NCBI GenBank assembly: GCA_013204025.1
Contig: JABMOW010000074.1
Location: 1-30,085, forward strand
Origin: Fidelibacterota bacterium
GTDB lineage: Bacteria; Fidelibacterota; Marinisomatia; SCGC-AAA003-L08; JACNLC01
DNA: 30,085 bases
Direction: 5' to 3'
Positions 2,731-26,908 of the stretch are shown piece by piece; position 1 is the first letter of the stretch; each line of letters begins with the position of its first letter. Both the position numbers and the translations under genes were made by a program. The notes under the pieces are model-generated. The model was not told the origin of the DNA. It made no database searches and worked only from the letters and a program-made list of their open reading frames with translations.

Positions 2731-3318
2731 TTATCGGAACAGATGAAACATATATCCTGAAATTATCACCAGTATACATCCAAAGATAAAATTATGTTTC
2801 AGAACGAATTCGTCGAATTGAAAATATAACTTATCAAAAATAAAAGACAATTTCCGTGTAGAAACCCAACGGTCGGTTTTTTGGAAAATCTTTTTAACTG
2901 CTGTAGGACGAAAGATCAATGTCAGCATCAAAACAATTCCAATCGACATGAATGTGATGATAATCCATTTTACTGATATTAGTACAATTTCTACTACAAC
3001 GCCATACTCATATTGATTCATTGATTTCTCAAATTCACCGATGTTTAAATTGTGATTATATATATACATGCATGCTGCAAATCCCACAAGTAGAATCCAG
3101 CCAAGCACCGTGTTGTATTTCATGAAATATTCAGTTGTTTCCCTTGGTACACCAAGAGGTCTGGTGAGGCGTCTGGTGGAGATCCATTGACTTAGATTTC
3201 GATTTAAGCTACCAATTAGATCCGGTTTAAGTATCAAGACCAGCCCCAAACATAAATTTAAAAATCCTGCGAAGGCTAAAAACCAGTCATTAAAATCCAT
3301 GAGAATTATCTTATACAT
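2731..3318 (-). CDS. Hypothetical membrane protein (about 4 TM segments) built from two homologous halves
   Basis: Hydrophobic segments are present. There is an internal duplication: ..LILKPDLIGSLNRNLSQWISTRRLTRP.. versus ..LIFRPTAVKKIFQKTDRWVSTRKLSFI.. It is the last gene downstream of gvpK on the same strand. Confidence 0.55.
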   Translation of the reverse strand: MYKIILMDFNDWFLAFAGFLNLCLGLVLILKPDLIGSLNRNLSQWISTRRLTRPLGVPRETTEYFMKYNTVLGWILLVGFAACMYIYNHNLNIGEFEKSMNQYEYGVVVEIVLISVKWIIITFMSIGIVLMLTLIFRPTAVKKIFQKTDRWVSTRKLSFIFDKLYFQFDEFVLKHNFIFGCILVIISGYMFHLFR

Positions 3319-3491: not shown

Positions 3492-3836
3492 TTACATCAA
3501 ATTTCCCAACGGGCCGAGATTGATATTTAAATCTCTATCCGTAAGGTTAAAATGTTTTTTTAGCTCTTCCATTTTCATCTCCAGCTTCATCAGGGTTTCA
3601 CCTAATCTTTCGATTTCTTCTTCCGTTAATGATCCGCCATCAACTCTTCGCATGGCTTGTTTCTCAACTAGTTTACGGATGAGTTCAACGATGGTTAGTA
3701 CTAGTTTTGCCAGTCCTGAATCTGCATTCTCAGGGCTGAGCTCTAGTCTGGATTCTTCTTTGCTTGCTAGTTTTGCCATCTCTTCCGAAATCTCATCAAG
3801 CGAACCGGTATTAAATAGTATTTTATTTTCACTCAT
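3492..3836 (-). CDS. gvpK: Gas vesicle protein GvpK
   Basis: The GvpK-like translation (MSENKILFNTGSLDEISEEMAKLASKE...LAKLVLTIVELIRKLVEKQAMRRVDGG..TEEEIERLGETLMKLEMKMEEL) was recognised by eye. The ATG at 3834-3836 is preferred over the GTG at 3884, which would overlap the upstream gene by 40 nt. Confidence 0.75.
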   Translation of the reverse strand: MSENKILFNTGSLDEISEEMAKLASKEESRLELSPENADSGLAKLVLTIVELIRKLVEKQAMRRVDGGSLTEEEIERLGETLMKLEMKMEELKKHFNLTDRDLNINLGPLGNLM

Positions 3837-3844
3837 CGTACTGA

Positions 3845-4594
3845 TTATTTTATTGTGATATCTACAAAATTGTAGGGAGGCCACTGACCTGTTAAGACAA
3901 ATTTTAGCCCGGTGTATTGGATTTGTAATTCTTTAACTGCCTGAATTAATCCTTCTTTTTCATTCTTTTTCAGTAAAATAACTACATCGATAATAGTTGT
4001 TTCAGTTACCATTTTTTTAAATCTGTGAATTGAGTTCAATTGCGCTAGATGCGTTGTAATATTTTGAATAATTGCATCAATATGTGCTAACAGCGACTCT
4101 TCAAACCGGTGCTCTTTTAGTTTTTTATAGAGGTATTTACTATAAATTGATTTTTCAATGCCTTGTTCGAGTTCAATTGCAGGTTCAGTTTCTGATTTGT
4201 CTTTAAGTTCTGTCTTTAATTTTTCGGAATCACAGAAAACTTTTAAGCCGTATTCAACCTTATTTTCGACTTTCAGGAGATTGCACTGGATTTCATTATA
4301 GTTTCTTTCCAGCATTTTTTTAGTCGTATCGGTTGATTCCATCACAGAACCATACCGAACTGGAAGCAATGTAAATTGTTGGGCAAGGGTTTCAATTACC
4401 CCTGCATATTCAATTGCACTGGATTTATCAACAATTAAATCAGCTCTATTAACGTCGCTTACTACAGCTGCAATTTCGTCAAGCGTGACTACATATAAGT
4501 CCGTGTTCGATAAACCTTTTATTCCGGCCAACAGAGCATCTAATTTTTTAGTGTTCTTTTTTACGGATACTATGGAATAAATCATCATTTCCAT
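3845..4594 (-). CDS. gvpF: GvpF/GvpL-family gas vesicle assembly protein (paralog 5)
   Basis: The N-terminus reads ..IYSIVS....LYVVTLDEIAAVVSD. The C-terminus has the family hallmark ..VTGQWPPYNFVDITIK. Confidence 0.85.
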   Translation of the reverse strand: MEMMIYSIVSVKKNTKKLDALLAGIKGLSNTDLYVVTLDEIAAVVSDVNRADLIVDKSSAIEYAGVIETLAQQFTLLPVRYGSVMESTDTTKKMLERNYNEIQCNLLKVENKVEYGLKVFCDSEKLKTELKDKSETEPAIELEQGIEKSIYSKYLYKKLKEHRFEESLLAHIDAIIQNITTHLAQLNSIHRFKKMVTETTIIDVVILLKKNEKEGLIQAVKELQIQYTGLKFVLTGQWPPYNFVDITIK

Positions 4595-4596
4595 GA

Positions 4597-4800
4597 CTAA
4601 GTACTTATTGATCTTCCGGACTTTAGTTGCTCCATGGTTTCAACCGAACTTAACATTAATTTTACGCCCAAGTATACCAAATCAATATCTGCTACTGAAA
4701 TTACAATATCACCGGTGAGGATGACACCCTTGTTTAAAACTCTATCGAGTAATTCAAGGATGGTGATATCTTTTGACCGATCAATTACATTGTTGTTCAT
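4597..4800 (-). CDS. GvpA-family small hydrophobic protein (GvpM/GvpJ-like)
   Basis: The core ILELLDRVLNKGVILTGDIVISVADIDLVYLGVKLMLSSVETMEQ parallels the GvpA core [42 protein letters not shown]. Confidence 0.8.
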   Translation of the reverse strand: MNNNVIDRSKDITILELLDRVLNKGVILTGDIVISVADIDLVYLGVKLMLSSVETMEQLKSGRSIST

Positions 4801-5594
4801 TACTGTTTTTCTTTAATGGAGATAAAACTAAATGGCGGCCAAGGTCCGGTTGCTTCAATAATAAAGCAGAATTTTTCGTCTTTTTTTATCAGTTTGTCGA
4901 CTGTACTCTTAAAATCATTGACTCTGTTTTTACTTACAAGAAAGGTAGCATTGAGGATCATGGTATTCTCTGTTCCTGTAAATTCTTTCGGGAGCAGGTT
5001 ATTGAGTCGGGTTGATTCGCTCAGATTTTTAAATTCATCATAATATTCCTGTCCATAACTGTTATTAAGTCTGTTCATCTCAGTTTCGATTAGGTCTTCT
5101 TTTTTTCTTTTAAAAAGAAATGCTTTCCCGGGTGAACTTGCCATAATCTTTTTTTCCAGCGTAGCTGTTTCCTCGCTCAATTCGTCAATTTGTTCGCTCA
5201 ACACTTTACGATTACAGTAAATTTTAACCGACCATTCTTCCTTTCCCTGGATATTATGGAAATTTTCGATCAATGAGCTGGAATAATCTGTGATGAATTT
5301 TTTCAAACTGGTTTTAGTTTTATAGATAGTACCAAATTTAAAGGGGATCACAGTACCAGATTCCATAACCTTGCTGATCACCATGATATGCTCCCTCGCG
5401 TTGGATTCCACCCACAAAATATCTGAAATATTCTTTTTGAAGTTTTCTTCGGAGAATTCACTATTAGAAACATATTTAATAATTACATAAAAATTATCGA
5501 TCACAATGGATTTCAAGCCTTTGAACTCCATATTATGATTGAGTTGTGGAGGACTCTTTGTTATGCAATAAAGATATATCAAATCATTTATCAT
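4800..5594 (-). CDS. gvpF: GvpF/GvpL-family gas vesicle assembly protein (paralog 4)
   Basis: The N-terminus reads LIYLYCI..., and the C-terminus ends ..IIEATGPWPPFSFISIKEKQ. It overlaps its neighbours by 1 nt, which suggests translational coupling. Confidence 0.85.
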   Translation of the reverse strand: MINDLIYLYCITKSPPQLNHNMEFKGLKSIVIDNFYVIIKYVSNSEFSEENFKKNISDILWVESNAREHIMVISKVMESGTVIPFKFGTIYKTKTSLKKFITDYSSSLIENFHNIQGKEEWSVKIYCNRKVLSEQIDELSEETATLEKKIMASSPGKAFLFKRKKEDLIETEMNRLNNSYGQEYYDEFKNLSESTRLNNLLPKEFTGTENTMILNATFLVSKNRVNDFKSTVDKLIKKDEKFCFIIEATGPWPPFSFISIKEKQ

Positions 5595-5866
5595 TAATTA
5601 TCCGAACTATCCTTTCCTTCAAAGGAATTTAGTCTTTCGAAAGATGTAATTTCAAGTTTTTCATCTAATTCTACTTTGTAGAATAACCGCACTTGTTTTG
5701 GAGGTAAGTTCATTGATTTTAAGAAAGAATCATTTTCATATACTTCTGAAAAGGAGTTCCATATTTCATTTACTTTTTCAATTTTTATCACCGTTACATC
5801 AGAACAAATGATACTCTCTTTCAGAAACTTAACCACAGCTTTTTTTACATCGATGATATTACTCAT
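5594..5866 (-). CDS. Hypothetical small protein inside the gvp operon (possible uncharacterised gvp accessory protein)
   Basis: An open frame sits in an operon-conserved slot between gvpG and a gvpF/L paralog. The likely start is the internal Met (MSNIIDVKK..), because the longer ORF (to 5917) would overlap gvpG by 26 nt. No motif was recognised. Confidence 0.45.
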   Translation of the reverse strand: MSNIIDVKKAVVKFLKESIICSDVTVIKIEKVNEIWNSFSEVYENDSFLKSMNLPPKQVRLFYKVELDEKLEITSFERLNSFEGKDSSDN

Positions 5867-5891
5867 TTTTATCTCCAGTGAATAATTTGTT

Positions 5892-6119
5892 TCATTTCTC
5901 GGTACTGATATTTTCAAGCAATTGTAATAATTCGTCTTCTCTCTCGTCGTATTCTTCTACGTCAATTTCGTCCATCTCGAACTTCAATTGCAAAGCCATA
6001 AGTCGTTCTTTAATGGCGCCTTCATCAGACATTTCTTTCTCGATTACCTCATTGATTTTATTTCCAATAAAAATAATTCCTTTTAAAGGCGCTAGAAGTA
6101 TGTCATCGATTAAAAACAC
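5892..6119 (-). CDS. gvpG: Gas vesicle protein GvpG-like
   Basis: A 75-aa protein (MFLIDDILLAPLKGIIFIGNKINEVIEKEM...EEYDEREDELLQLLENI) resembling GvpG in size and composition. Its position between gvpF/L genes fits. Confidence 0.65.
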   Translation of the reverse strand: MFLIDDILLAPLKGIIFIGNKINEVIEKEMSDEGAIKERLMALQLKFEMDEIDVEEYDEREDELLQLLENISTEK

Positions 6120-6120
6120 A

Positions 6121-6915
6121 TCAAATTCCTTTCGTGTAAATTGTCAGATTAACAAAATTATATGGAGGCAATGTTCCTACGTATTTGAAGGTCATGAGAT
6201 GACCATATTTTTCATCCAAATTGTTCACCGCTTTGTCAAATGCAGGTTCTGATGTGTTTTTAATAAGGAAGGCGGCATTGAGGATCATCATTTCTCCATA
6301 GTTATCGTTCACCTTGACATCAACCGCATGCGGATTTAATTCAGAGAGAATATTGTTTCGATATGCCTCTCTCTCTTGTTCAAGCGCTTCGGCAACCATT
6401 TCACCAATTTTCATACGTTGATAATGGGTTTTATCTGCTGGCAGGTTCATCAGCTTTTCTTTTAATGACCTGATATCATCATATTTTTCAATGATGCTTT
6501 CATAAATTGCGGCTTCATGGGCAAGTATTTTGAGTCCTAATTCTTTTTTTCCATCCATCGTAATGAGAAGATCGTTGAATTTTTTATAATCCTTTTCGAG
6601 GATTCTCAGAATCCCGGCATCATCGTTGTGTTCTGATATAGTTGAAAAACGGATCGGTAGAACAGTAAACCGCTTCATCACCTCTTCAAGTACCAATTGA
6701 TGGGCGATCATATGAGCTCGTCTGGCCTTATATTGTATGATTGGTGAATTACTTACAACTGCACTGATATCTTTGTAATGGATTCCATAGACCTTATCAG
6801 ATCGATCTCCGATACCAATAGGGCCAAAGTCAATCGAATCTGCGTGCCTTATGATGCCATATATATACTTGCCTTCTTTGGGCGTTTCTTGCATGTTGCT
6901 CATAGTTAACATCAA
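6121..6915 (-). CDS. gvpF: GvpF/GvpL-family gas vesicle assembly protein (paralog 3)
   Basis: The N-terminus reads KYIYGIIRHADSIDFGPIGIG....ISAVVS. The C-terminus ends ..KYVGTLPPYNFVNLTIY. Confidence 0.85.
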   Translation of the reverse strand: MMLTMSNMQETPKEGKYIYGIIRHADSIDFGPIGIGDRSDKVYGIHYKDISAVVSNSPIIQYKARRAHMIAHQLVLEEVMKRFTVLPIRFSTISEHNDDAGILRILEKDYKKFNDLLITMDGKKELGLKILAHEAAIYESIIEKYDDIRSLKEKLMNLPADKTHYQRMKIGEMVAEALEQEREAYRNNILSELNPHAVDVKVNDNYGEMMILNAAFLIKNTSEPAFDKAVNNLDEKYGHLMTFKYVGTLPPYNFVNLTIYTKGI

Positions 6916-6925
6916 ATAAGTTTCA

Positions 6926-7699
6926 TTACAATTCCCACTTTTCGGGAAATATTTTCAGATCTATGAAATTATAAATCGGCAATGGAGCTGTATAAACAAA
7001 GTCGCTTCGGTCCTGGTATTTGATACCAAGATCTGCCATCATGTTATCAAGTTCAATCCCCCTTCCACTGTTCATAAGAATTGCCGTATTCATAAACATA
7101 GCATCTCCACTTGTTTTGTTATGTCTATAATCGAACACCGATCTTCTAAAGGCATCGATAATTTTTTCCGCTTCCACTACTTTCTTTTCAGCCAAAGCAT
7201 GTTCAATCAGTTCTCCGGTTTCAACTATTTTCAGCTTCCTTTTCTCCAGATCAGGCATTTTTTCGATTTTTACCTTGCTATTATGCAATTCAGCGTGTTC
7301 CTTGTCGATCTCCTTGTATATCATACTCATGTCTCTCCAGATTCCCTTTACATTGATTTCCACCTTATTTTCGAACTGCTTGAGCAATTCCATAAACTCG
7401 CTGTATCTGCGGTTAAGCAGGTTGCGAATTTCATCTGGAGTAGCGGCGATGGTACCAAACCTGATGGGGAGCATGCTTTCGAATTCCTTCATCACCGCTT
7501 CTAGAACCTTTTGGTGACTAATAATATTATCTGGGCTTACAACAAACTTGCCAAGCGGATGGTCACTCACCACCATACATAAACCATCGAAACCGATGGT
7601 AGAGACTAGGTCGCATCGCCCCCCAACTCCAATAGGGCCAAAATTGGTGTCATATTTTGTTGATATTATACAATATATATATTTACCATCCCGCTGCAT
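6926..7699 (-). CDS. gvpF: GvpF/GvpL-family gas vesicle assembly protein (paralog 2)
   Basis: The N-terminus reads KYIYCIISTKYDTNFGPIGVGG....LCMVVSD. The C-terminus ends ..VYTAPLPIYNFIDLKIF. Confidence 0.85.
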   Translation of the reverse strand: MQRDGKYIYCIISTKYDTNFGPIGVGGRCDLVSTIGFDGLCMVVSDHPLGKFVVSPDNIISHQKVLEAVMKEFESMLPIRFGTIAATPDEIRNLLNRRYSEFMELLKQFENKVEINVKGIWRDMSMIYKEIDKEHAELHNSKVKIEKMPDLEKRKLKIVETGELIEHALAEKKVVEAEKIIDAFRRSVFDYRHNKTSGDAMFMNTAILMNSGRGIELDNMMADLGIKYQDRSDFVYTAPLPIYNFIDLKIFPEKWEL

Positions 7700-7700
7700 A

Positions 7701-8741
7701 TTACTCCATTATTTTTACTAAAATCAAATTTTCAATTACTTTTTCCTTCGCAAGTGAAATATTATCATCATTTGAAGATTGTCTTATCGCTGCTGAATAA
7801 TTAATCAATGTACGATAGGCCATATTGATCTTGTTAAAGCTTTCTTTATCGCCATTTCTAGGATGCGCATCGGGATGAAATAATTTCGCTTTTTCCAGAT
7901 ACGCCTTTTTAATTTCTGATTCCGTTGTTTCATCCCCGAGTCTAAGCTCTATTATTGCCTGTAACACAATTTCCAGATTTAGCTCATTAACTTCAAGGGT
8001 GTAAAAACTATAACACGGTAGAGGTCCGACTAATTTGAAGTTCAACAAACCCTTGTATTCTTCATCAAGTTGGTCAACTATCTTTTCAAACAAACCCTGA
8101 TTGTTTATATTGATGAGAAACGCAGAGTTGGTTACCATTTCGTCATTCATTACTTGATGCGTTTTGATATCGAGACTGCATTGTGATAATGAATCCAGAA
8201 TATTGAATTCAGTTTTTGTGTTTTTTTCTTTTAATTTTGACTGAACCAACATCCCTATTTTCATCTGGTCAGCCTGCGAAAGTATATCTATTTTTTTCTG
8301 TATTTCATCTCTTAAAGATACGATTTCGGGATGTCCAGAAATTTCTTTAAGAATCTCCGGGAAATTGTCCCATGTGGCTGCCAAGTCAATTTCTGTCAGA
8401 TATTCAGTTTTCTTCAGAGTTGTGATAATTAATTCATAGCCATTGGCAAGTACTTTAATAACCTCTTGCTTTGATCCAACAACCGTATAAAACTTCATAG
8501 GGATAAGAGTGGAGGATCCTTTTAACTGGAGTGCTTCAATCGTTTTTTGATGATGAATCAATAAATACCCAAGCGACTTCTTGTTCAACTGATCAAGTTG
8601 GATATCCTCCGTGTCAGAGACTATAGCCAATATATTTTTAAAGCTGATGGTATAAAGCTCTGAATTTTCCAATAATCTTAACATATCCGTGTTGTGATTT
8701 TCCAACATAATACCGTAGATATAAATTTTATTTGTACTCAT
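7701..8741 (-). CDS. gvpF: GvpF/GvpL-family protein fused to a C-terminal DnaJ-type J-domain (HPD motif)
   Basis: The N-terminal ~255 aa are GvpF/L-like (KIYIYGIM..., ..KLVGPLPCYSFYTLEV). The C-terminal ~70 aa read ..SEIKKAYLEKAKLFHPDAHPRNGDKESFNKINMAYRTLINY, which has the helix II-HPD-helix III arrangement of a J-domain. Confidence 0.85.
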   Translation of the reverse strand: MSTNKIYIYGIMLENHNTDMLRLLENSELYTISFKNILAIVSDTEDIQLDQLNKKSLGYLLIHHQKTIEALQLKGSSTLIPMKFYTVVGSKQEVIKVLANGYELIITTLKKTEYLTEIDLAATWDNFPEILKEISGHPEIVSLRDEIQKKIDILSQADQMKIGMLVQSKLKEKNTKTEFNILDSLSQCSLDIKTHQVMNDEMVTNSAFLININNQGLFEKIVDQLDEEYKGLLNFKLVGPLPCYSFYTLEVNELNLEIVLQAIIELRLGDETTESEIKKAYLEKAKLFHPDAHPRNGDKESFNKINMAYRTLINYSAAIRQSSNDDNISLAKEKVIENLILVKIME

Positions 8742-8752
8742 GCGATGTGATC

Positions 8753-10906
8753 TTATTTCTTCTTTGCGTTTTGTGTTAATACCAGTTCGATCGCTTCTTC
8801 AAAATGTTTCGTCAGGATGATGATTTCTCCGGTAAGTTCAGATGACTTTCTACTTTCTTTTTCTATCAAAGCGCGAATTGCGAGCATGGCTGCTTTTTGG
8901 CAAATAAATTCGATATCTGATCCAGTTAAGCTATCTGTTTTCAGAGCTAGTTTTTTCAGATCTACTTTTTTATCAAGGGGTTTATTCTGGGTATGGATAC
9001 TGAATATTTTTTCCCTGGTAAATAAATCGGGCATAGGCAATTCAAAGATCAGATCGAACCTGCCACTTCTTAGTAAAGCCGGGTCAATTAAATCGATCCT
9101 ATTGGTTGCTGCCAGTACGATTACCCCTTTTAAGTCTTCAATGCCATCCATTTCAGTAAGGAACTGGCCGATCACACGTTCGATAACACCGGAACCGCCA
9201 TTATTGCGTCTGGGGGTAAGGCTGTCTATTTCGTCAAGGAACAAGATGCACGGTGATGCTTGTTTAGCCAATCTGAAGATCTCCCTTACTCCTTTTTCTG
9301 ATTCACCGATATAACGGCTCAAAATCTGTGGACCTTTTACGGAGATAAAATTAACTCCACTTTCACTTGCCAATGCTTTTGCAAGGTAGGTCTTACCTGT
9401 CCCGGGTTTTCCGTGAAGTATAATTCCTTTGGGTGGTTTGGTGGCGGTTTTTTTGAAAAGGTCGGCATATTTCAATGGCCATTCAACGGTTTCCATTAAA
9501 GCATTTTTGATGTCATCCAGACCACCAACATTTTCCCATTTAACATTGGGGATTTCCACAAATACTTCTCTGATGGCCGACGGTTCTACTTCTTTCATCG
9601 CATCAAGAAAATTATCCATGGTTACTTCAAGCGACATTAATAATTCGTATGGGATCTCTGCTATCTCGAAATTGATTTGAGGAAGTATTTTCCGCAAAGC
9701 AGTCATCGCAGCTTCGCGGGCTAAGGCTTCCAAATCCGCTCCCACAAAACCATGGGTGATTTCGGCCAGTTTTTCCATATCTACATCCATCGACAAGGGG
9801 ATACCCCGAGTATGGATATGAAGGATTTCCAGTCTGCCCTTTTTATCAGGAATGGAAATAGAAATTTCTCTATCGAACCGCCCAGGTCGTCTCAAAGCAG
9901 GATCTATGGAATTAGGAATATTGGTCGCGCCAATCACGATGACCTTACCCCTTGATTCCAGTCCGTCCATCAGCGACAACAGTTGAGCGACCACGCGTTT
10001 CTCCACCTGTTTCTCTCCGCCCATTTCTTCTCTCTTGGGCGCAATGGCATCAATTTCATCTATGAAAATAATGGAAGGCGCATGTGCCTGAGCCTCTTCA
10101 AAAATCTTACGGATTCTCCCTTCGCTCTCCCCATAAAATTTCCCCATGATCTCAGGGCCAGAAATGTTGATGAAATAGGCATCCGTTTCATGAGCCACAG
10201 CTCTAACGATGAGCGTTTTTCCGGTTCCCGGAGGACCATAAAGGAAAACTCCTTTGGGTGGCTGAACACCAAGTCGTTCGAAAATCTCAGGATATTTTAG
10301 CGGAAGTTCAATCATTTCTCTGATGCGTTGAACTTGGTTTCCAAGCCCCCCAATGTCCTCGTAGGAAACCTTACTTTTGCGTTTCCCGTCTTGCTTTGCC
10401 AATTCAAGCTGAATAATAGTATTTGGGTGTATTAATACAACGCCCTCGGGATTGATACCGGTTACAGTGTAATCAACTGAACGAGACCCAAACAGGACTG
10501 CTTTAATTCTATCGCCTTTTGTTACCGGAAGACCATTGATCAGCGAGCCAATGTACTTTGTGTCATCGGCTTTGTATAAAGAACCGGTTTTTGTATCAGA
10601 TTTGAGTTTTATTTTTGTCGCCTGGCGGCAAGTTGTTTTAATAATTTTTACTTTTTCATCGATCCCTGCCTGTGCATTTTCCCTGGTGATCCCGTCAATC
10701 TGAATGATACTCATATCTCTGTCATCAGGATAACATGGCATTATTCTTACAGGGGTAGCTCGTTTGCCTTCAATCACAACTACGTCGCCACTTTCCAAGC
10801 CGATCAATTTCATATCTTTTGGATCGATCCTGGCGATGGCTCTTCCAACATCCTTTACCAGGGCTTCTTTAACACGTAATATTATTTCATCTTTGATTTT
10901 TACCAT
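8753..10906 (-). CDS. cdc48: Cdc48/VCP/VAT-like double-ring AAA+ ATPase (N-domain plus D1 plus D2)
   Basis: The N-domain is Cdc48-like ([41 protein letters not shown]). There are two Walker A motifs ([16 protein letters not shown]) and two Walker B motifs ([20 protein letters not shown]). The protein is 717 aa. Confidence 0.9.
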
Positions 10907-10909
10907 GGT

Positions 10910-11830
10910 TTACGGTTTCTTTGGTTGATCTCCAAAAAGATACATACTCAATTTTTTCAATGCTTTCAGCCCTTTGATTTCTTCAGGAAACATGGGTACT
11001 TCAATCATATTCAAATTACTAAATATTTCACTAATCTGGCTCAAATATGGTAATTGGCTCGCCCTTCGCCTTTTACAAAAATCACAATCCTCAGAAACCA
11101 CTACATTGTTTACGATGATCTGTCTCGAAATGATTCCGGATTTACCAAGATCCGCTAATAGTCTGTCCGTTTCTATAATTGCCATCGCTTCGGGGATACA
11201 AACAGGGATAAATTCGCATTTGGAGTTATTTTTCAAGATGTTTTCGATCCTTTTAACCGTTTTTTTAAGGTTGAGTAAAAAGGTGTCTACCTTATCCTGC
11301 TTATATGAACCTGAAAAGCTGGTGACCATATAACGGTATTTCCATCTCATCTTGGCGGCAACTTTTATCCATGCATCCAATAATTTTGGAGATGAAATCA
11401 GTCGCAATGCGTGACCAGTGGGTGCGGTATCCACAACATATTTATCATACTCGCCTTCTTCAATAAAATCAATGATGGTTTTAAAACTCATCACCTCATC
11501 AATGCCGGGTATCGATAAGGTCAGCATCTCGTCGATGTCCTCATTGTCAAGATTTGTAGAAGTTTCCAGAAGTTTTTTAAGCTCGTTATGGTGTGCTGTT
11601 TTGAATACCGAAAGTGCCTCGTCAGCAACCACTTCTATAGCCGACAGGTTGTCTACACCATCAACCTTTACCACATTAAAACCAATTTGTTGTTCGAGAC
11701 AATCCGACACAGAATGAGCCGGATCGGTGGAGATGAGAAGCGTTCTGTGATTTTCAGACAACGCCAGCGCTGTGGTTAAAGCACAACTGGTTTTTCCAAC
11801 GCCACCCTTTCCTCCGAAAATGATGAGCTT
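10910..11830 (-). CDS. Get3/ArsA-family P-loop ATPase with a CxxC motif; the N-terminus and start codon are unresolved
   Basis: The ORF carries the ArsA/Get3 signature VVDTAPTGHALRL and a CDFC (CxxC) motif. The tracked ATG (11761) lies downstream of the P-loop. The frame stays open upstream to the TAG at 11882-11884 and encodes KLIIFGGKGGVGKTSCALTTALALSENHRT, but contains no ATG, GTG or TTG. The 5' end given here is therefore approximate. Confidence 0.8.
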   Translation of the reverse strand, partial: KLIIFGGKGGVGKTSCALTTALALSENHRTLLISTDPAHSVSDCLEQQIGFNVVKVDGVDNLSAIEVVADEALSVFKTAHHNELKKLLETSTNLDNEDIDEMLTLSIPGIDEVMSFKTIIDFIEEGEYDKYVVDTAPTGHALRLISSPKLLDAWIKVAAKMRWKYRYMVTSFSGSYKQDKVDTFLLNLKKTVKRIENILKNNSKCEFIPVCIPEAMAIIETDRLLADLGKSGIISRQIIVNNVVVSEDCDFCKRRRASQLPYLSQISEIFSNLNMIEVPMFPEEIKGLKALKKLSMYLFGDQPKKP

Positions 11831-11868
11831 TAGATCGTCGTTTCCTAATCCGGTAAGGGTCGTGTTTT

Positions 11869-12396
11869 TTATTTTGCTATCCTAATTTCAAGGATTCCAT
11901 TATTAAATTTGTGATTTAGGTTTTTACTTACGACTTTTACCGGAAGAAGCAGCTCTTTGCGGTATGTCCTATTATTGCTGACCGCCGAAATTTCAAGTAT
12001 ATCTTCTTTTAGGTCGATTTTAAGGTCAACTTCCTCTATTCCCGGCATTTCAGCAATGATGACGATCTCATTCTTTTCATCAAATATGTCGGTTATCGGC
12101 TCCCGTTCTTCATCCACTCTTGGTCCTTCGGGTGTTTTTTTTATGTTTCCGAAAGTCTCAACTTGTGGTTCACCTCCAACTGCCGTGTTGACGGTAAAGC
12201 CATAAATGCCTTTCATGCCTTTTTTGATATGATCAAAATTAATCTCACCTTCCTTGCTAATTCCCCCCTTTTCCTCGAGCTTCCCAGCAAGGTCAACTAA
12301 TTTTTCGATGCCTTTGAACAGACCGCCAAGTCCGAAAAGATCAGAATTGGCTTCGCCCTTTTTTTCTTTATTTTTTTCGTTTTCCATTTTAAACAT
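11869..12396 (-). CDS. gvpH: Hsp20/alpha-crystallin-domain protein (GvpH-like)
   Basis: The C-terminal alpha-crystallin domain reads ..ITDIFDEKNEIVIIAEMPGIEEVDLKIDLKEDILEISAV...YRKELLLPVKV....FNNGILEIRIAK. The N-terminus is Gly/Lys-rich. Confidence 0.75.
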   Translation of the reverse strand: MFKMENEKNKEKKGEANSDLFGLGGLFKGIEKLVDLAGKLEEKGGISKEGEINFDHIKKGMKGIYGFTVNTAVGGEPQVETFGNIKKTPEGPRVDEEREPITDIFDEKNEIVIIAEMPGIEEVDLKIDLKEDILEISAVSNNRTYRKELLLPVKVVSKNLNHKFNNGILEIRIAK

Positions 12397-12431: not shown

Positions 12432-12731
12432 TTAAGATGGTTTACTGATAGTCTCAAGTTTTTCCAAGCGCGCCTCAATAGTTGACTGTTGCTGCATAAG
12501 CTCTTTTTCCCTGGCTTTCGTGGAAAGGTAGGTGTCTTCCTGCCACCAGTTAATCCCCATCTCCATGGCTTTATCCACCGAAGCCACCAGTAGCCTAATT
12601 TTAATGGTTAACAGGTCTATATCTGCTATCTGAATTTTTATATCACCAGCAATAACGATTCCTTTATCGAGAACTCTTTCAAGAATATCGGCAAGACCAG
12701 TGGCGTTAATTGAATGCATGGGTTCTGGCAT
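12432..12731 (-). CDS. gvpJ: GvpJ-like (GvpA family with a C-terminal extension)
   Basis: The GvpA-like core LADILERVLDKGIVIAGDIKIQIADIDLLTIKIRLLVASVDKAMEMG is followed by a ~35-aa charged, helical tail. Confidence 0.8.
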   Translation of the reverse strand: MPEPMHSINATGLADILERVLDKGIVIAGDIKIQIADIDLLTIKIRLLVASVDKAMEMGINWWQEDTYLSTKAREKELMQQQSTIEARLEKLETISKPS

Positions 12732-12748: not shown

Positions 12749-13063
12749 TTAATAATCTATCGACATAGTTTTAAAATCAGATTTCACTTCTTCCTGGTTC
12801 TTTTTATTTGACTTCTTAGTTTCAGGAATGCATATCTGTTTTGCTTTTTCGTTAGTAAATACTTGGATTTCCTTTAACCGGTTTTGAATAATCTCAAGTC
12901 TTTGTAAAATCCTGATCTCTTCACTTTGCAAACGGCTTCTTTCTTTTTCGAAGAGATACAGATTTATGAACTCTGAATCTTCCTTATTTGGAATACCGGA
13001 TTTGGCAGCATTTTTCATTGATTTAATGCTTTGAAGTCCTTTTATTGCACTTGAAATTGGCAT
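12749..13063 (-). CDS. Hypothetical coiled-coil protein inside the gvp operon
   Basis: A 104-aa ORF is tightly packed between gvpN and gvpJ. It is charged and helical (..EKERSRLQSEEIRILQRLEIIQNRLKEIQ..). No motif was recognised. Confidence 0.5.
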   Translation of the reverse strand: MPISSAIKGLQSIKSMKNAAKSGIPNKEDSEFINLYLFEKERSRLQSEEIRILQRLEIIQNRLKEIQVFTNEKAKQICIPETKKSNKKNQEEVKSDFKTMSIDY

Positions 13064-13075
13064 AATATTTCCGAT

Positions 13076-14020
13076 TTATTGAGGGTTTGATTTATTAGGT
13101 TTTAGAGTATTTTGATTTATTAATTCATCAACGATTAATTTCACCCTTTCCTGATTGGTTTTTGAGCCAATCCGGCTGGTTTCGGAAGTGAGAATATCCT
13201 GACAAATTTTTCGGAATAGATCTTTTGATTTTGATGGTGTTGTATTTAAAGTTGCCAGTGTTTTTGCAATCATGATGGAACCACGAATAGTCGGATCAAA
13301 TTCAGTTTTCCCTGACTCGCGTAAACCCCTGACAATTTTAACAATTATTTCAGTATCCTTTAGCGAAAGGTCGGATTTTGCCTTGGTAATCTGCAATTCG
13401 GTTTCAAAATCGAAATGATCGAGATCCATGGTAACCATCCTGTCGCGAAGAGCGTCCTGGGTTCGGTTAACCCCGGCATATTCTTCAGGATTTGACGTAA
13501 AGATTGCGCGAAATTCGGGATGCACCTTCATGTAATAATCCTCTTCGTTTGTAGCTGATGTACTCAGCATTCTCTCTTGAAGTATTGGTAGAAGGATATT
13601 ATTTGCTTCCGGGCGCGATCGGGTAAATTCGTCATAAATAAGGGTAAACCCGTTTTTAACAGCGATAGTCAAACGGTTATTCACCCACTGCTTTGACATA
13701 TTCTCTTCATACTTATGAACAGTATGAATAAACTTATCATCCAATTTTTTATATTTATACCCCTGTTCGCTACCAACTAAATCAGAAGTTTTATATTCGG
13801 CATCACCATGTATAATGACCGACGGTCTGCCTATTTTACTTGCCAGATGCATGGCGACTGTTGTTTTTCCGGTTCCCGATGGACCCCTGAAATGAACTGG
13901 GAATCCCGCTTTTATATAGGTTAGGCCACGGGCGGTAATGTCTTTTATATAATCAGTTTCTACAAAATTCGACATCGGTTTCAGCTCAAGTACGGTATTC
14001 ATTTCATTGTTATTGCTCAT
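13076..14020 (-). CDS. gvpN: Gas vesicle AAA+ ATPase GvpN
   Basis: The Walker A reads FRGPSGTGKTTVAMHLA. The size (314 aa) and single-AAA layout are typical of GvpN, and the genomic context fits. Confidence 0.9.
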   Translation of the reverse strand: MSNNNEMNTVLELKPMSNFVETDYIKDITARGLTYIKAGFPVHFRGPSGTGKTTVAMHLASKIGRPSVIIHGDAEYKTSDLVGSEQGYKYKKLDDKFIHTVHKYEENMSKQWVNNRLTIAVKNGFTLIYDEFTRSRPEANNILLPILQERMLSTSATNEEDYYMKVHPEFRAIFTSNPEEYAGVNRTQDALRDRMVTMDLDHFDFETELQITKAKSDLSLKDTEIIVKIVRGLRESGKTEFDPTIRGSIMIAKTLATLNTTPSKSKDLFRKICQDILTSETSRIGSKTNQERVKLIVDELINQNTLKPNKSNPQ

Positions 14021-14071: not shown

Positions 14072-14260
14072 TTACATAAATTCTTGGTTGGACAATTGTT
14101 CAACTGTGCTTTTCCAGATGTCCCTTGCCTCTTCAATTTCTTTTGTTATCTGTTCCTTTGCAAGTAAATAAGCTTTTTTCTTGGCTTTAAACCGGATTAA
14201 TGCTTCTTGTCTTTTCAGTAAATTTTTCCTGATATTATTTACGGCATTATTCAATGTCAA
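14072..14260 (-). CDS. Hypothetical small helical protein (62 aa), translationally coupled to the zinc-finger gene
   Basis: There is a 4-nt ATGA overlap with the upstream ORF. The protein is basic and helical. No motif was recognised. Confidence 0.45.
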   Translation of the reverse strand: MTLNNAVNNIRKNLLKRQEALIRFKAKKKAYLLAKEQITKEIEEARDIWKSTVEQLSNQEFM

Positions 14261-14574
14261 TTACCTTTATATCCCTTACCACTACAACGTGTACAGGGCA
14301 AGCCATCGCTCTCTTTTCCATTTCCTTTGCATTTCGTACATTTTGTATTGCTCTCACAATTATTGCTCCCTTTCCCCCGACAAACTATGCACGGAACCCT
14401 GGCTCCAAGCGGGTTTCTGCCTGTACCCAAACAAAAAACGCATGTAACTGTCGACTCCCCTGCTTCAACCTGTCTTGTACCATCACAAACCAGACAAACT
14501 GACATCGGCGACAGTAAATCGAAAGGGTCTTTTCCGGTTCCACTACAATATGCGCATTTGATTACTTTTTTCAT
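14257..14574 (-). CDS. Stand-alone DnaJ-type cysteine-rich zinc-finger protein (6x CxxCxGxG)
   Basis: Six repeats are present: CAYCSGTG, CLVCDGTR, CVFCLGTG, CIVCRGKG, CTKCKGNG and CTRCSGKG. The protein has no J-domain and no other domain. Confidence 0.8.
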   Translation of the reverse strand: MKKVIKCAYCSGTGKDPFDLLSPMSVCLVCDGTRQVEAGESTVTCVFCLGTGRNPLGARVPCIVCRGKGSNNCESNTKCTKCKGNGKESDGLPCTRCSGKGYKGN

Positions 14575-14668: not shown

Positions 14669-16024
14669 TTATTTTAGCGGAAAGTAAATATTTTCAACTT
14701 TTTGGACTTTCCCTGCATTCAACAAGATTTTAGCTATAAATCCAAGTTTCATTCTGGTTTCTCCAAGGGGTTTTTCCATTTCCGAAATTTTCACACCTTT
14801 GGGATGTTTGTTGATATAATCAAGTATCTTATTTTCCAAAGTTTTCGGACTTGTTGGTTCTGGAGTGTTAACCAGGGGTTTAGGTTTAGCTGGAGTTTCA
14901 TTTGTTGCCATGAGAACTACGGGGTTTGGTTTGGTTTCAACAGGGATTTCCTTTGTTGGCATTGCTGCCACAGGCGGTTTTGGTTTAGCCGGAGTTTCCT
15001 CTGTTGCCATGAGAACTACGGGGTTTGGTTTGGTTTCAACAGGAGTTTCCTGAGTTTCCATTGCAGCCACAGGCACTTTTGGTTTGGTTTCTGCCGGAGT
15101 TTCCTTTTTTGCCTGATCCTTTACTACTTGCTTAGGCGATATAATAATGCCCATTTTTCTTATTTGAGATATAGAGTCTTGCATATTTTTCCATGTTGCA
15201 GTAGCCTCTCCTCTGTCTTTTGATAGATAACCAAGCATTCCATTAGTATATTTCTGAATTCCATTTACTTCATTACGAATTCCTTTAATAGCCCCATGTA
15301 TCCCGGTCATGATTGACCTGTATCCGCTAAGTCTTTCTGCTTCTCCAGTATCAAGGTCTTTTCTCAACTTTTGAGCCATTTGTTGGTTTTCTGTACTTAT
15401 TTCAGACAATTTTTTTTGAAACCCATTCAACAGGGTTTTGGTATATTCAACTCTTTCAGTCAGATTTTTACTTAATTCTGCTCTAAGCTCATCCGTCATT
15501 TCCATATGCTCATTCTCAAATCTTTTGAGCATATCGTTGGTGTTTTTGAAAATACTCAAAACCTCGTCGTTGATACTTTTAATATCATCGTTGATATTTT
15601 TCATGAGCGTACCAAATTCCTTCATCCGATTTTTTTCATTCCCCAATCTGTCAGCTTTTCCTTGTGCAAAAGATTTATTTAATTCGTCTGCCATTTGTTC
15701 TCTATTGGCAGCGAATTCATTGATCATATTTAAGGTGCAAGTTTGAATTGTCTTTACATCTTTCTGAATGGATGTGATCGTGCTATGGATATTCGTCATT
15801 AATTCATTGTAGGTGTTCAGGCGTTCTTTTTCATCACCTGCTAGGCCTTTTTTTAAGGCCATAGCATTGGCATTTATAACACTGGTCATTTTCTGGTGAT
15901 CTTTTCGAAAACCATCGAGGGTTTTCTGTACATCGCTTACAAGATCTTCATTTTCCTTGATTCGCTGTTTAAATGAAGCAAGTATGTCTTCACTCAAATT
16001 TTTCATTTCTGATGCTAATCCCAT
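14669..16024 (-). CDS. Repeat-rich helical protein, candidate GvpC-like gas-vesicle shell/scaffold protein, with a C-terminal winged-helix-like domain
   Basis: It contains ~60-aa degenerate helical repeats built around (D/G)x(K/A)(E/D)RL(N/S)xY(N/R)x(L/I)MT(N/G)IH(S/G)xI(T/K)xI(Q/R)x(D/E)V(K/N)xIQ, written with slashes for alternatives. Two and a half tandem 33-aa Pro/Lys-rich repeats follow (ETKPNPVVLMATEETPAKPKPPVAAM..). The C-terminal ~60 aa (..KILDYINKHPKGVKISEMEKPLGETRMKLGFIAKILLNAGKV) look like a winged helix. Confidence 0.7.
   Translation of the reverse strand: MGLASEMKNLSEDILASFKQRIKENEDLVSDVQKTLDGFRKDHQKMTSVINANAMALKKGLAGDEKERLNTYNELMTNIHSTITSIQKDVKTIQTCTLNMINEFAANREQMADELNKSFAQGKADRLGNEKNRMKEFGTLMKNINDDIKSINDEVLSIFKNTNDMLKRFENEHMEMTDELRAELSKNLTERVEYTKTLLNGFQKKLSEISTENQQMAQKLRKDLDTGEAERLSGYRSIMTGIHGAIKGIRNEVNGIQKYTNGMLGYLSKDRGEATATWKNMQDSISQIRKMGIIISPKQVVKDQAKKETPAETKPKVPVAAMETQETPVETKPNPVVLMATEETPAKPKPPVAAMPTKEIPVETKPNPVVLMATNETPAKPKPLVNTPEPTSPKTLENKILDYINKHPKGVKISEMEKPLGETRMKLGFIAKILLNAGKVQKVENIYFPLK
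14874..15094. repeat. 99-bp tandem repeat (x2.3) inside the CDS, encoding 33-aa Pro/Lys-rich units
   Basis: Units at 14874-14972 and 14973-15071 are nearly identical. A partial third unit follows. Confidence 0.8.
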
Positions 16025-16064: not shown

Positions 16065-16667
16065 TTAGTTGATTTCTTTAATGATTTGATCTTTAATCGT
16101 TTTAATATCCTGAACCATAATGTCTTCGCCCCTTTTAAGTAAGCTTTCAAAGCATTCCGTCATTCGGTAGTGCATTTTCTGAAATTCTATAAAAGTCTTC
16201 ATGACTGATTCTTTGCTCATTTCCTGTTGTATTGAGATCTGAGAAAGTTGCTCTTTGATGATAGTAACTTTTCCGTTGGCGTCCGGTGACGTATTTATAT
16301 CCAACATGTTTTTCTTTAACGACTGGGCAGCTTCTTTCTGAACTTCGATAAAGCTTAAAAACTGTTCCTCAGCCTCTTTTTCCTTTGCGTCGAGTACGTC
16401 AAGAATCCCCGACATTATAATATTGTAATCTTTTTTACGCAGAGAACCATTTTTTGCCATGGTTTCACAAAGCTTGGAATTTAATATGTCTCTTTCCTTT
16501 TTTAGATCATTTAAGGAATTATGGACATTATCGAAAAGGAGGTGGGACGATTCCGCAATATACTCTGATGATTGGAAAGCAGTTTGAATTTTTTCTACCC
16601 TGGCCTCATATGAAGTTATAATGTTGTTAATAACGCTATTTATATTCAATTTAGGGAAAGTATCCAT
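16065..16667 (-). CDS. Helical protein paralogous to the repeat unit of the 451-aa protein (second GvpC-like candidate), directly downstream of gvpA
   Basis: ..SLRKKDYNIIMSGILDVLDAKEKE.. parallels ..ERLSGYRSIMTGIHGAIKGIRNEV.. The protein is 200 aa and mostly helical. Confidence 0.65.
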   Translation of the reverse strand: MDTFPKLNINSVINNIITSYEARVEKIQTAFQSSEYIAESSHLLFDNVHNSLNDLKKERDILNSKLCETMAKNGSLRKKDYNIIMSGILDVLDAKEKEAEEQFLSFIEVQKEAAQSLKKNMLDINTSPDANGKVTIIKEQLSQISIQQEMSKESVMKTFIEFQKMHYRMTECFESLLKRGEDIMVQDIKTIKDQIIKEIN

Positions 16668-16820: not shown

Positions 16821-17027
16821 TTATGCGGCTTTCGCGGTCAATCCTATTGCTTCGGCATACTTCAGGTATGTTTCAACAGATGCAACTACTATTCTTGCTT
16901 CGATTGCAAGAAGTTCGATACCTACTAATGAAACTCTAACCCATGCATCGACTACGACACCCTTATCAAGGATTCGGTCGATAACCTCTACGAGGCTGGA
17001 TGATCCGATGGTTTTTTCTACAGCCAT
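16821..17027 (-). CDS. gvpA: Major gas vesicle structural protein GvpA
   Basis: The sequence [62 protein letters not shown] is canonical for GvpA. A strong SD (AAGGAG) lies 7 nt upstream of the ATG. Confidence 0.95.
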
Positions 17028-17099
17028 TTGATGACTCCTTTTTTGATTTAATACCGCGCTTTAATTTGAGGGGCGGCTAACCTCTTTCACTTTAAGACA

Positions 17100-17117
17100 T
17101 GGCAATGATAATGCCGT
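17100..17117 (-). promoter_or_regulatory. Putative sigma-54 (-24/-12) promoter for gvpA
   Basis: The minus strand reads cGGCAttatcaTTGCc, i.e. GG-N10-GC with GGCA and TTGC elements. It lies about 75 nt upstream of the gvpA ATG. A sigma-54 enhancer-binding-protein gene is the next gene upstream. Confidence 0.45.
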
Positions 17118-26700: not shown

Positions 26701-26908
26701 TTTTAATATTGTATCCGTCATACCGATTCAATCCGTCTTGGGTACCAATCCATAGGAAGCCATTGCTGTCCTGAATGATACAATTTACGGTGCTTTGGGA
26801 CAACCCATCCTTGATGGTAATGTGTTCAAATTCTGCCGATAGACCATTGTCAGCCGATAAAACCGACAGAATGATAAGGCTGCTGGTTAAGTATTTAATC
26901 TTTGTCAT
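23729..26908 (-). pseudogene. Beta-propeller (two-component-regulator propeller / Y_Y_Y) sensor histidine kinase, interrupted by an in-frame TAA (24101-24103) between HisKA and HATPase_c
   Basis: The 935-aa ORF has a signal peptide, WxGT-type propeller repeats, a TM segment (FGLLLVFSSLFYIISRRL) and an H-box (ITHDLRNPIGTA). After the TAA the same frame continues as KQIIVDNQIQEKIEIRANPIISEIFDNYISNAIKYGGSAKSITLIAEKSSTHITIRVNDLGQ..GGGGLGLAIVKKIADAHHADVGVEP... These are the N, G1 and G2 boxes. 24101 and 23729 are congruent mod 3. Confidence 0.75.

Follow-up and report, generated by a model that had tools for sequence, protein, structure and literature searches.

Introduction

How the 3-nm GvpA shell of gas vesicles is assembled, and where ATP is spent in the process, is an open question. 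Current assembly models rest on gas-vesicle (gvp) gene clusters in which GvpN is the only ATPase, and GvpN is likewise the only ATPase discussed in the gas-vesicle literature that we found (PMC9501494). The locus described here raises the question of what a second ATPase, of the threading type, is doing in such a cluster. It lies in a 30,085-nucleotide (nt) stretch of DNA from a bacterium placed in the Fidelibacterota (contig JABMOW010000074.1 of assembly GCA_013204025.1, positions 1 to 30,085; hereafter, the window), where an intact, ATG-initiated open reading frame (ORF) of 717 amino acids (aa), on the minus strand at 8753–10906, encodes a Cdc48/VAT-type double-ring ATPase of the AAA+ superfamily (ATPases associated with diverse cellular activities). 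This gene is a fixed, operon-embedded part of a gvp cluster type found in Bacteroidota, Ignavibacteriota, and Chlorobiota, and its product belongs to a clade that occurs, among the sequences inspected, only in a gvp context.

Identity of the Cdc48 Protein

A preliminary description of the locus had read the ORF as an N-D1-D2 segregase of the Cdc48/VAT type, distinct from the MoxR-like GvpN, and this identification was borne out. The ORF encodes a full N-D1-D2 protein, comprising an N domain (residues 1–175; nt 10382–10906), a D1 ring module (residues 176–450; nt 9557–10381), a D2 ring module (residues 451–690; nt 8837–9556), and a short, basic C-tail (residues 691–717; nt 8756–8836), all on the minus strand. 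In Pfam searches, the bipartite N domain characteristic of the CDC48 family (a double-psi barrel plus a beta-clam) was recognized as CDC48_N (PF02359) at residues 10–91 (85 bits; cut-off, 35.1) and CDC48_2 (PF02933) at residues 111–171 (39.9 bits; cut-off, 22.4). The same searches identified two AAA modules (PF00004; 311 bits together, with the best stretch at 220–350) and two AAA_lid_3 domains (PF17862). Over residues 8–711, the protein matches the 733-position NCBIfam profile TIGR01243 (“CDC48 family AAA ATPase”) at 904 bits against a cut-off of 802.65, and public records label the gene with the same name. Among sequences in the PDB, the top match is VAT of Thermoplasma (5g4f; 749 bits, query residues 6–678), with human p97 and yeast Cdc48 scoring 631 and 610 bits, respectively.

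The catalytic motifs are present in both rings, including Walker A (GPPGTGKT at 224 and GKPGTGKT at 499), Walker B (IIFIDEID at 279 and ILFLDEID at 554, with DEID in each ring), sensor-1 (GATN at 326 and AATN at 599), and the arginine fingers (RPGRFD at 340 and RSGRFD at 613). The pore loops, KFYGESE in D1 (256) and RYIGESE in D2 (531), align with those of VAT. The motifs of both rings are invariant across 28–77 members of the clade described below, and competence is predicted for the two ATPase rings as well as for their aromatic pore loops. Each computable hallmark of CDC48-family membership was thus found in the ORF. A monomer model produced with AlphaFold2 (AF2) from a 28-sequence alignment, in which all sequences were at least 84% identical, was of low confidence (predicted local distance difference test score, 66; predicted template-modeling score, 0.38). 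A Foldseek search of the PDB with this model returned p97/Cdc48 chains over ~715 columns (E-value, 1e-67; template-modeling score, 0.35), a result that was used only as agreement in secondary structure.

Several other AAA+ identities were considered and rejected. The preliminary description had allowed that the ORF might belong to a different clade, such as the FtsH-like AAA proteases; however, the corresponding model, TIGR01241, scored 500.7 bits, below its cut-off of 600 and through the AAA modules only, whereas TIGR01243 scored above its own. No protease domain was found in the ORF, and Peptidase_M41 was not among the 25 best Pfam families listed. Two models for the proteasome-activating nucleotidase PAN did pass their 500-bit cut-offs (NF003069, 581 bits; TIGR01242, 560 bits), but only through the generic AAA module, and this reading was set aside because TIGR01243 scores far higher and spans the whole protein. 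Models for ClpA and for the anti-phage protein IteA remained below their cut-offs and likewise matched only the generic AAA module. Finally, the GvpN model, TIGR02640, is matched not by this ORF but by a separate gene at 13076–14020.

Conservation in gvp Clusters

In the window, Cdc48 is one of the 20 genes of a minus-strand cluster that spans gvpA to gvpK, on the same strand as its neighbors and tightly spaced from them, as expected of a gvp-operon gene. Its ATG lies 3 nt past the stop codon of a Get3-like gene (get3), and its own stop codon lies 11 nt ahead of a gene for a GvpF/L protein fused to a J-domain. The coordinates agree exactly with the preliminary description in that the gene follows get3 and precedes five GvpF/L genes. 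Its placement “beside gvpN” was correct as to the cluster but not as to adjacency, as gvpN is 2.2 kb upstream and separated from Cdc48 by four genes (a 104-aa gene, gvpJ, hsp20, and get3).

The preliminary description had also proposed looking for the gene alongside gvp genes in other genomes, where such co-occurrence proved to be the rule. A scan of GTDB, with one genome per species, identified 465 genomes with a relative of this Cdc48, and the best 80 of the 465 loci were inspected; the lower boundary of the Cdc48 clade is not visible within these 80. The Cdc48 proteins of these loci are 80–90% identical, and their sources include metagenome-assembled genomes (MAGs) of Bacteroidales, Prolixibacteraceae, and Lentimicrobiaceae, as well as Ignavibacteria, Chlorobiaceae, and the cultured, gas-vacuolate bacterium Polaribacter filamentus ATCC 700397 (L059). 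When all window proteins were compared with the 80 loci by tblastn, gvp gene order with Cdc48 was found to be conserved in 79 of them, the exception being a 2.4-kb contig that holds Cdc48 alone. An identical layout was apparent from precomputed Pfam annotations of an Ignavibacteriae contig, in which get3 and cdc48 overlap by 4 nt.

Because this first set of loci was anchored on Cdc48 itself, a converse test was run on 80 metagenome loci retrieved with a GvpN query. Cdc48 was present ~2.2 kb downstream of gvpN in every locus with at least 3 kb of downstream flank (45/45), and likewise in all 38 of the 38 loci that reach at least 4.5 kb downstream. The gene is intact in every related locus where the contig allows it to be read. 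Over 116 intact ORFs, the modal gap is 3 nt on the upstream side of Cdc48 and 11 nt on its downstream side, and in some loci neighboring genes overlap by 4 nt. Four loci (L024, L045, L078, and L130) have ~600–900 nt of extra sequence between get3 and cdc48, versus the usual 3–20 nt.

The 80 Cdc48-anchored loci derive from different species-level genomes, with the exception of three MAGs that contribute two loci each. In each of these MAGs, two Cdc48-containing gvp contigs were found (L009/L011, L001/L037, and L032/L044), and Cdc48 is complete on both. These pairs represent either two gvp clusters per genome or mixed strains in a bin; haloarchaea and Serratia are examples of organisms that hold two gvp clusters.

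A gvp-Associated Clade of Cdc48

Within the clade, Cdc48 identity is 78–90%, and the next relatives found by a HMMER search of 1.84 billion cluster representatives are at most ~56% identical. The nearest named outgroups, which are VAT-like and 50–56% identical, come from Altiarchaeum, Dadabacteria/Thermodesulfobacteriota, Kariarchaeaceae, and Halocalculus, with further VAT-like relatives in Bathyarchaeota, Thermoplasmatota, Woesearchaeota, and Methanopyrus. In a neighbor-joining tree, the gvp-linked proteins form a tight clade on a long stem, inside the VAT-like radiation and next to the Dadabacteria group; the tree was built on identity distances without bootstrap and is indicative only. A second search, using the most divergent member (Chlorobiaceae, L079), yielded, among the matches listed, members of the same clade at 78% identity or more and a single outlier at 55%. 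Among the top 120 matches listed, no gvp-linked Cdc48 of intermediate identity was found that would bridge to other phyla.

No members of the clade were seen outside gvp clusters among the loci inspected, and gvp genes are absent around the three nearest outgroups examined (Dadabacteria, a marine bacterium, and an archaeon). It had been considered at the outset that Cdc48 might be unique to this genome in its gvp setting and elsewhere be a housekeeping gene. That possibility is contradicted by the 79 of 80 and 45 of 45 loci described above and by the three outgroups; given the same operon slot across loci and outgroups devoid of gvp genes, this Cdc48 belongs to a gvp-dedicated clade rather than to the housekeeping members of its family.

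Conservation is uneven along the protein. Mean identity within the clade is 96% for D1, 85% for D2, and 79% for the N domain, and identity to the outgroups is 56–67%, 44–57%, and 28–36%, respectively. An N domain that is conserved within the clade and low in identity to the outgroups fits a clade-specific partner or substrate. The gene is under strong purifying selection, with a ratio of nonsynonymous to synonymous substitution rates (dN/dS) of 0.03–0.06, a range that is to be read with dS at 1 or more and synonymous sites near saturation.

The C-terminus is also conserved within the clade, ending in ...LVLKQNATKK. A penultimate tyrosine is found in 0 of 120 clade members, and none of the 120 carries the hydrophobic-tyrosine-any residue (HbYX) motif by which Cdc48 proteins of the archaeal Cdc48–20S class dock to the 20S proteasome; the motif occurs in 12 of 99 outgroup representatives. 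A subtilase gene at 402–2096 of the window was considered as a possible protease partner but is absent from all related loci. With no HbYX motif in the clade and no counterpart of the subtilase in related loci, coupling of this Cdc48 to a protease is unsupported by the sequences.

Organization and Regulation of the gvp Locus

The region from 22874 to ~3492 is entirely on the minus strand and constitutes one gas-vesicle locus; the features below are given in the order of transcription and all lie on that strand. The locus begins with genes for a multi-PAS hybrid histidine kinase (18678–22874) and an NtrC-type sigma-54 activator, a response regulator (17284–18681). These are followed by gvpA (16821–17027; PF00741), encoding the 68-aa major shell protein, which is 97–100% identical in related loci. 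Approximately 75 nt upstream of gvpA is a sigma-54-type −24/−12 element, CGGCAT-N5-TTGCC (17101–17116), and TGGCMC-N5-TTTGC/G occupies the same place in related loci (L002, L004, L013, L019, L023, L038, and others). The presence of this element, together with the adjoining NtrC-type activator gene, suggests sigma-54/NtrC control of the gvp operon, which may be likened to control by GvrA in Serratia. The element was found only by reading the intergenic region and comparing loci: a strict scan of the window for TGGCAC-N5-TTGCW, allowing up to 2 mismatches, returned 11 matches versus 11.2 expected, i.e., chance level. Scans of the window for sigma-70 promoters were uninformative as well (50 found versus 47.5 expected).

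Two genes follow gvpA, one for a conserved 200-aa protein without a family match (16065–16667) and one for a repetitive, coiled-coil, apolipoprotein-like protein of 451 aa (14669–16024). The latter has weak apolipophorin-like matches, approximately three internal repeats of ~35 aa, and a duplicated Pro/Thr/Lys-rich segment. As it fills the slot after gvpA where gvpC usually sits, this protein is likely a GvpC analogue. An “apolipoprotein” gene has also been noted in a Prosthecochloris gvp cluster, in a study that mentions no ATPase (PMC10158934).

Next is a gene for a 105-aa DnaJ-type zinc-finger protein (14257–14574; weak PF00684), which consists almost wholly of six CXXCXGXG-type motifs, as read from the sequence, and resembles the central domain of DnaJ. 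It is present in most related clusters and missing in some (e.g., L013, L023, L032, L036, L050, L079, and L080). It is followed by gvpN (13076–14020), encoding a canonical, single-module MoxR-like AAA+ protein (AAA_5; TIGR02640, 342 bits; cut-off, 267), and by a gene for a conserved 104-aa protein (12749–13063) that has no Pfam or NCBIfam match and is 30–73% identical in related loci. Then come genes for a 99-aa, GvpJ-like member of the GvpA family (12432–12731; PF00741, 62 bits) and for a small heat-shock protein (sHsp) of the Hsp20/alpha-crystallin type (11869–12396; PF00011; NF041800, 131 bits), the latter kept in all related loci.

The get3 gene (10910–11863) encodes a single-domain ATPase of the Get3/ArsA/TRC40 type in a 317-aa frame (ArsA_ATPase, 272 bits; TIGR00345, 227 bits), with the P-loop GGKGGVGKT and a CXXC motif (CDFC). 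Its start codon in the window is ACG (11861–11863, minus strand), where homologues have ATG and begin MALTGLENNDLKLIIFGGKGGVGKT. The P-loop is in frame, but translation from the first canonical start (TTG at 11761) would begin only after it. The ACG could be a sequencing error, could serve as a non-canonical start, or could mean that the gene is inactivated.

Beyond Cdc48, the fused GvpF/L protein (7701–8741; GvpL_GvpF family) bears a C-terminal J-domain whose HPD motif (FHPDAHP) is intact, and the fusion is kept in clusters of Bacteroidota, Ignavibacteria, and Chlorobiaceae. GvpF is reported to bind monomeric GvpA (PMC9501494), and the fusion implies that DnaK/Hsp70 may be recruited to a GvpA-binding assembly factor. 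Four additional GvpF/L paralogues are distributed over the remainder of the operon, with paralogue 2 at 6926–7699, paralogue 3 at 6121–6915, paralogue 4 at 4800–5594, and paralogue 5 at 3845–4594. Interspersed with these are genes for the 75-aa GvpG (5892–6119; PF05120, 68.8 bits), a 107-aa protein that is weakly GvpO-like (5594–5917; PF05800 at 18.5 bits, below its cut-off) and kept in related loci, and a 67-aa, GvpS/M-like member of the GvpA family (4597–4800). The final gene is gvpK (3492–3884; PF05121, 119 bits).

Proposed Function and Alternatives

That Cdc48 is a functional gas-vesicle component is, in our judgment, highly probable. Its precise task is less easily assigned, and we tentatively favor a possible role as an assembly-phase quality-control unfoldase or disaggregase, acting on GvpA-family proteins or on their complexes with GvpF/L. 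The enzyme would form a hexamer whose clade-specific N domain recognizes a Gvp client, most likely a GvpA-family protein (GvpA, GvpJ, or GvpS), either free or bound to a GvpF/L chaperone, and the client would then be threaded through the D1–D2 pore at the expense of ATP. Since there is no HbYX tail and no conserved protease partner, the output would be a released polypeptide rather than degradation. In this manner, Cdc48 could pull the very hydrophobic shell subunits from off-pathway aggregates or dead-end complexes during vesicle construction. The subunits would be handed to Hsp20, the GvpF/L–J fusion (recruiting DnaK), the zinc-finger protein, and the Get3-like ATPase, after which GvpN could build them into the growing shell.

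This reading is favored because Cdc48 shares an operon with assembly genes and has chaperone-type neighbors. Indeed, an sHsp, a J-domain GvpF/L protein, a zinc-finger protein, Get3, and a threading motor together look like a complete client-handling module. A need for one is conceivable from work showing that GvpA is aggregation-prone and proteotoxic without sufficient assembly factors, and that those factors act as GvpA chaperones (PMC12848028). The operon context, as read from sequence, leans somewhat toward quality control or assembly over disassembly.

Several observations weigh against assembly-phase quality control. The get3 gene is absent in three related loci (L013, L050, and L152), of which one lies on a complete chromosome; eight others, including that of P. 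filamentus (L059), have a disrupted copy, and the copy in the window is start-mutated, such that a model needing a Get3 hand-off cannot be general. Haloarchaea, cyanobacteria, Bacillus megaterium, and Serratia assemble vesicles with GvpN as the sole cluster-encoded AAA+ protein (PMC9501494), and Cdc48 is, hence, not generally required for gas vesicles. The poor AF2 monomer model contributes no support, and both the proposed gas-vesicle role of Cdc48 and its candidate substrates are read from sequence. Moreover, sequence and context fit assembly quality control, shell disassembly or recycling, and the recycling of assembly complexes in the manner of NSF alike.

The main rival, by our estimate less probable than quality control, is shell disassembly or recycling, which the preliminary description had suggested along with extraction of misassembled GvpA/J; both suggestions are plausible. 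The hexamer would strip vesicles, whether intact or collapsed, of GvpA, GvpC-like, or GvpJ/S subunits, serving either active buoyancy loss or the recovery of subunits after pressure collapse. Cdc48 and VAT are, after all, segregases that pull subunits from stable assemblies, and VAT is the best PDB match; subunits freed without protease coupling would be reusable; and the hosts, judging by their source names, are organisms of stratified lakes and sea ice that regulate their depth. The strong conservation of the protein fits any essential role in the life cycle of the organelle. However, the gene sits in the middle of an assembly operon, apparently under the sigma-54 promoter of gvpA, whereas a dismantling enzyme would be expected to be oppositely regulated. 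Its neighbors (Hsp20, the J-domain, the zinc finger, and Get3) are more typical of the handling of nascent or aggregated clients, and enzymatic disassembly of the shell has, to our knowledge, been shown in no gas-vesicle system. An NSF-like recycler that splits the nucleation/assembly complex (five GvpF/L proteins, GvpG, J, K, and S) after each delivery cycle is unlikely, yet it would account for some peculiarities of the cluster: the five GvpF/L paralogues are unusual, one lies directly downstream and carries a J-domain, and the conserved, clade-specific N domain fits recognition of a folded partner. In haloarchaea, the accessory Gvps do assemble into a complex, in which subunit turnover is proposed to be aided by an ATPase (PMC9501494). 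That ATPase is GvpN, though, to which the role has already been ascribed, and the presence of an aromatic pore loop in each ring suggests an enzyme that fully threads and unfolds its substrate, not one that simply pries complexes apart.

Regulatory proteolysis, in which Cdc48 would control vesicle formation by passing either a regulator or one of the Gvp proteins to a protease whose gene lies elsewhere, has precedents in archaeal Cdc48/VAT proteins, which can deliver substrates to the 20S proteasome. A further parallel is the haloarchaeal NTPase GvpD, which triggers loss of the activator GvpE (PMC9501494). It is nonetheless quite improbable for the present clade, in which 0 of 120 members carry HbYX, the cluster lacks a conserved protease, and the subtilase of the window is absent from related loci. 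In addition, bacteria of the Fibrobacterota–Chlorobiota–Bacteroidota (FCB) group are not known to possess 20S proteasomes. That a housekeeping Cdc48 has merely hitch-hiked into the gvp region by chance would agree with the fact that homologues outside the clade are housekeeping genes in non-gvp contexts, but it is exceedingly improbable in view of the identical operon slot in two independently anchored sets of loci from three phyla (79 of 80 and 45 of 45), the intergenic gaps of 3–11 nt, and the long stem that separates a clade not seen outside gvp clusters.

By analogy with the handling of tail-anchored proteins by AAA extractases and Get3 in eukaryotes, it is also possible to envision, although we consider it rather unlikely, that the vesicles of FCB bacteria are actively remodeled. 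Here, Cdc48 would mechanically remove GvpA-family subunits from aggregates, collapsed envelopes, or the shell itself, and these would be re-targeted to growing vesicles with the help of the Get3-like protein, Hsp20, and the J-domain–GvpF/L fusion. If so, Cdc48 would be the first Cdc48-type segregase dedicated to a prokaryotic protein organelle, and such a cycle of extraction and re-insertion would render shell subunits recyclable, where the current assumption is that vesicles disappear only through collapse and dilution.

Relation to Known Systems and Significance

The closest known counterparts are VAT and the archaeal Cdc48 proteins, which share the same N (double-psi barrel plus beta-clam)-D1-D2 architecture, aligned over residues 6–678, and need no ubiquitin system. 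The VAT pore loops, KYYG and KWVG, correspond to KFYG and RYIG here, with an aromatic residue in both rings of each. In contrast to VAT, the gvp-linked protein resides in a bacterial FCB host, in an organelle-biogenesis operon rather than as a housekeeping gene; it also lacks HbYX, and its N domain is ~30% identical to the outgroups versus 79% identical within the clade. The eukaryotic segregase p97/VCP/Cdc48 belongs to the same family (TIGR01243) and aligns over the full length. It differs in being only ~44% identical, and the gvp-linked protein lacks the long acidic C-tail and resides in a host devoid of a ubiquitin/UBX adaptor system. The D1 pore loop of p97 is non-aromatic, unlike the KFYG of the gvp-linked protein.

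Among bacterial proteins, the Cpa ATPase of actinobacteria is a double-ring member of the Cdc48 family and a proteasome interactor (PMC6466877). Going by the description of Cpa, the gvp-linked protein differs in its FCB hosts, its tie to gas vesicles, and its lack of a docking motif. GvpN, encoded in the same cluster, is an ATPase proposed to drive shell growth or the turnover of subunits (PMC9501494), but it is a single MoxR/AAA_5 module with no N domain or tandem ring, and Cdc48 is an addition to it rather than a replacement. A functional analogy, and no more than that, can be drawn with the sHsp/DnaK–DnaJ/ClpB disaggregase, as a double-ring threading motor shares its operon with an sHsp, a J-domain (HPD), and a DnaJ-type zinc finger. 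The motor in this case, however, is a classic-clade Cdc48 without the M-domain of ClpB/Hsp104 (ClpA/ClpB models score ~33 bits), and the J-domain, unlike that of DnaJ, is fused to a client-binding GvpF/L protein.

The cluster type itself has been noted before. In Polaribacter irgensii and Pelodictyon luteolum, whose gvp clusters are of the same type as the window locus, Castillo and Saier (2010) noted hsp20 and homologues of arsA among the cluster genes (PMC2963123). They list gvpNLFGJKM, hsp20, and arsA and do not mention a Cdc48 directly after arsA. The gvp-associated ArsA proteins in that study are two-domain proteins of ~600 aa, whereas the Get3 protein here has a single domain and 317–334 aa. 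No paper linking Cdc48/VCP, transitional endoplasmic reticulum ATPase, or an unfoldase to gas vesicles was found in a search that left subscription journals mostly outside. The linkage therefore appears to be undescribed, though the gene is annotated publicly.

The result is a gvp cluster type with a second, threading ATPase, and a Cdc48/VAT clade dedicated to a bacterial protein organelle. A mechanistically well-understood motor is a fixed component of gvp clusters across a large group of organisms. Relatives occur in 465 species-level genomes, and the carriers include environmentally important Bacteroidota, Ignavibacteria, and green sulfur bacteria. A bacterial protein organelle would, thus, have recruited a “eukaryote/archaeon-style” segregase with no proteasome involved, pointing to an unstudied, ATP-driven protein-remodeling step in the building or recycling of vesicles. 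On the applied side, aggregation and proteotoxicity of GvpA limit the heterologous expression of gas vesicles (PMC12848028), and the Cdc48–Hsp20–J-domain–GvpF/L–zinc finger–Get3 module is a candidate for better acoustic-reporter gene constructs.

Additional Features of the Window

The region upstream of gvpA contains a further conserved element. The motif AGAGGTAAnCCGTCCCTC, which reads aagaggttagccgcccctc in the window, lies at ~17069–17088 on the minus strand, at least ~40 nt before the gvpA ATG. It is found upstream of gvpA in nearly every related locus sampled and also between tandem gvpA copies; owing to the latter position, it looks like a 5'-untranslated-region RNA or DNA element rather than part of a promoter. 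A search of Rfam gave no family match anywhere in the window, including the region of this motif.

The source MAG is labeled “Candidatus Marinimicrobia bacterium” by NCBI, and the closest relatives of both the cluster and Cdc48 are Bacteroidales and Prolixibacteraceae. A flanking hybrid sensor of the Reg_prop/Y_Y_Y type (24101–26908) is a typical Bacteroidota gene. The contig may have been mis-binned or mislabeled.

At the opposite end of the locus, a predicted multi-pass membrane protein of 195 aa (2731–3318), which is not kept in related loci, is encoded between gvpK and a hairpin at 2449–2474. Terminator-like matches within the cluster are weak and intragenic, and only this hairpin, at the cluster end, looks real. 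It is a strong, bidirectional, terminator-like structure with an 11-bp stem followed by a T-run, just past the last genes of the cluster, and the gvp transcription unit probably has its 3' end there.

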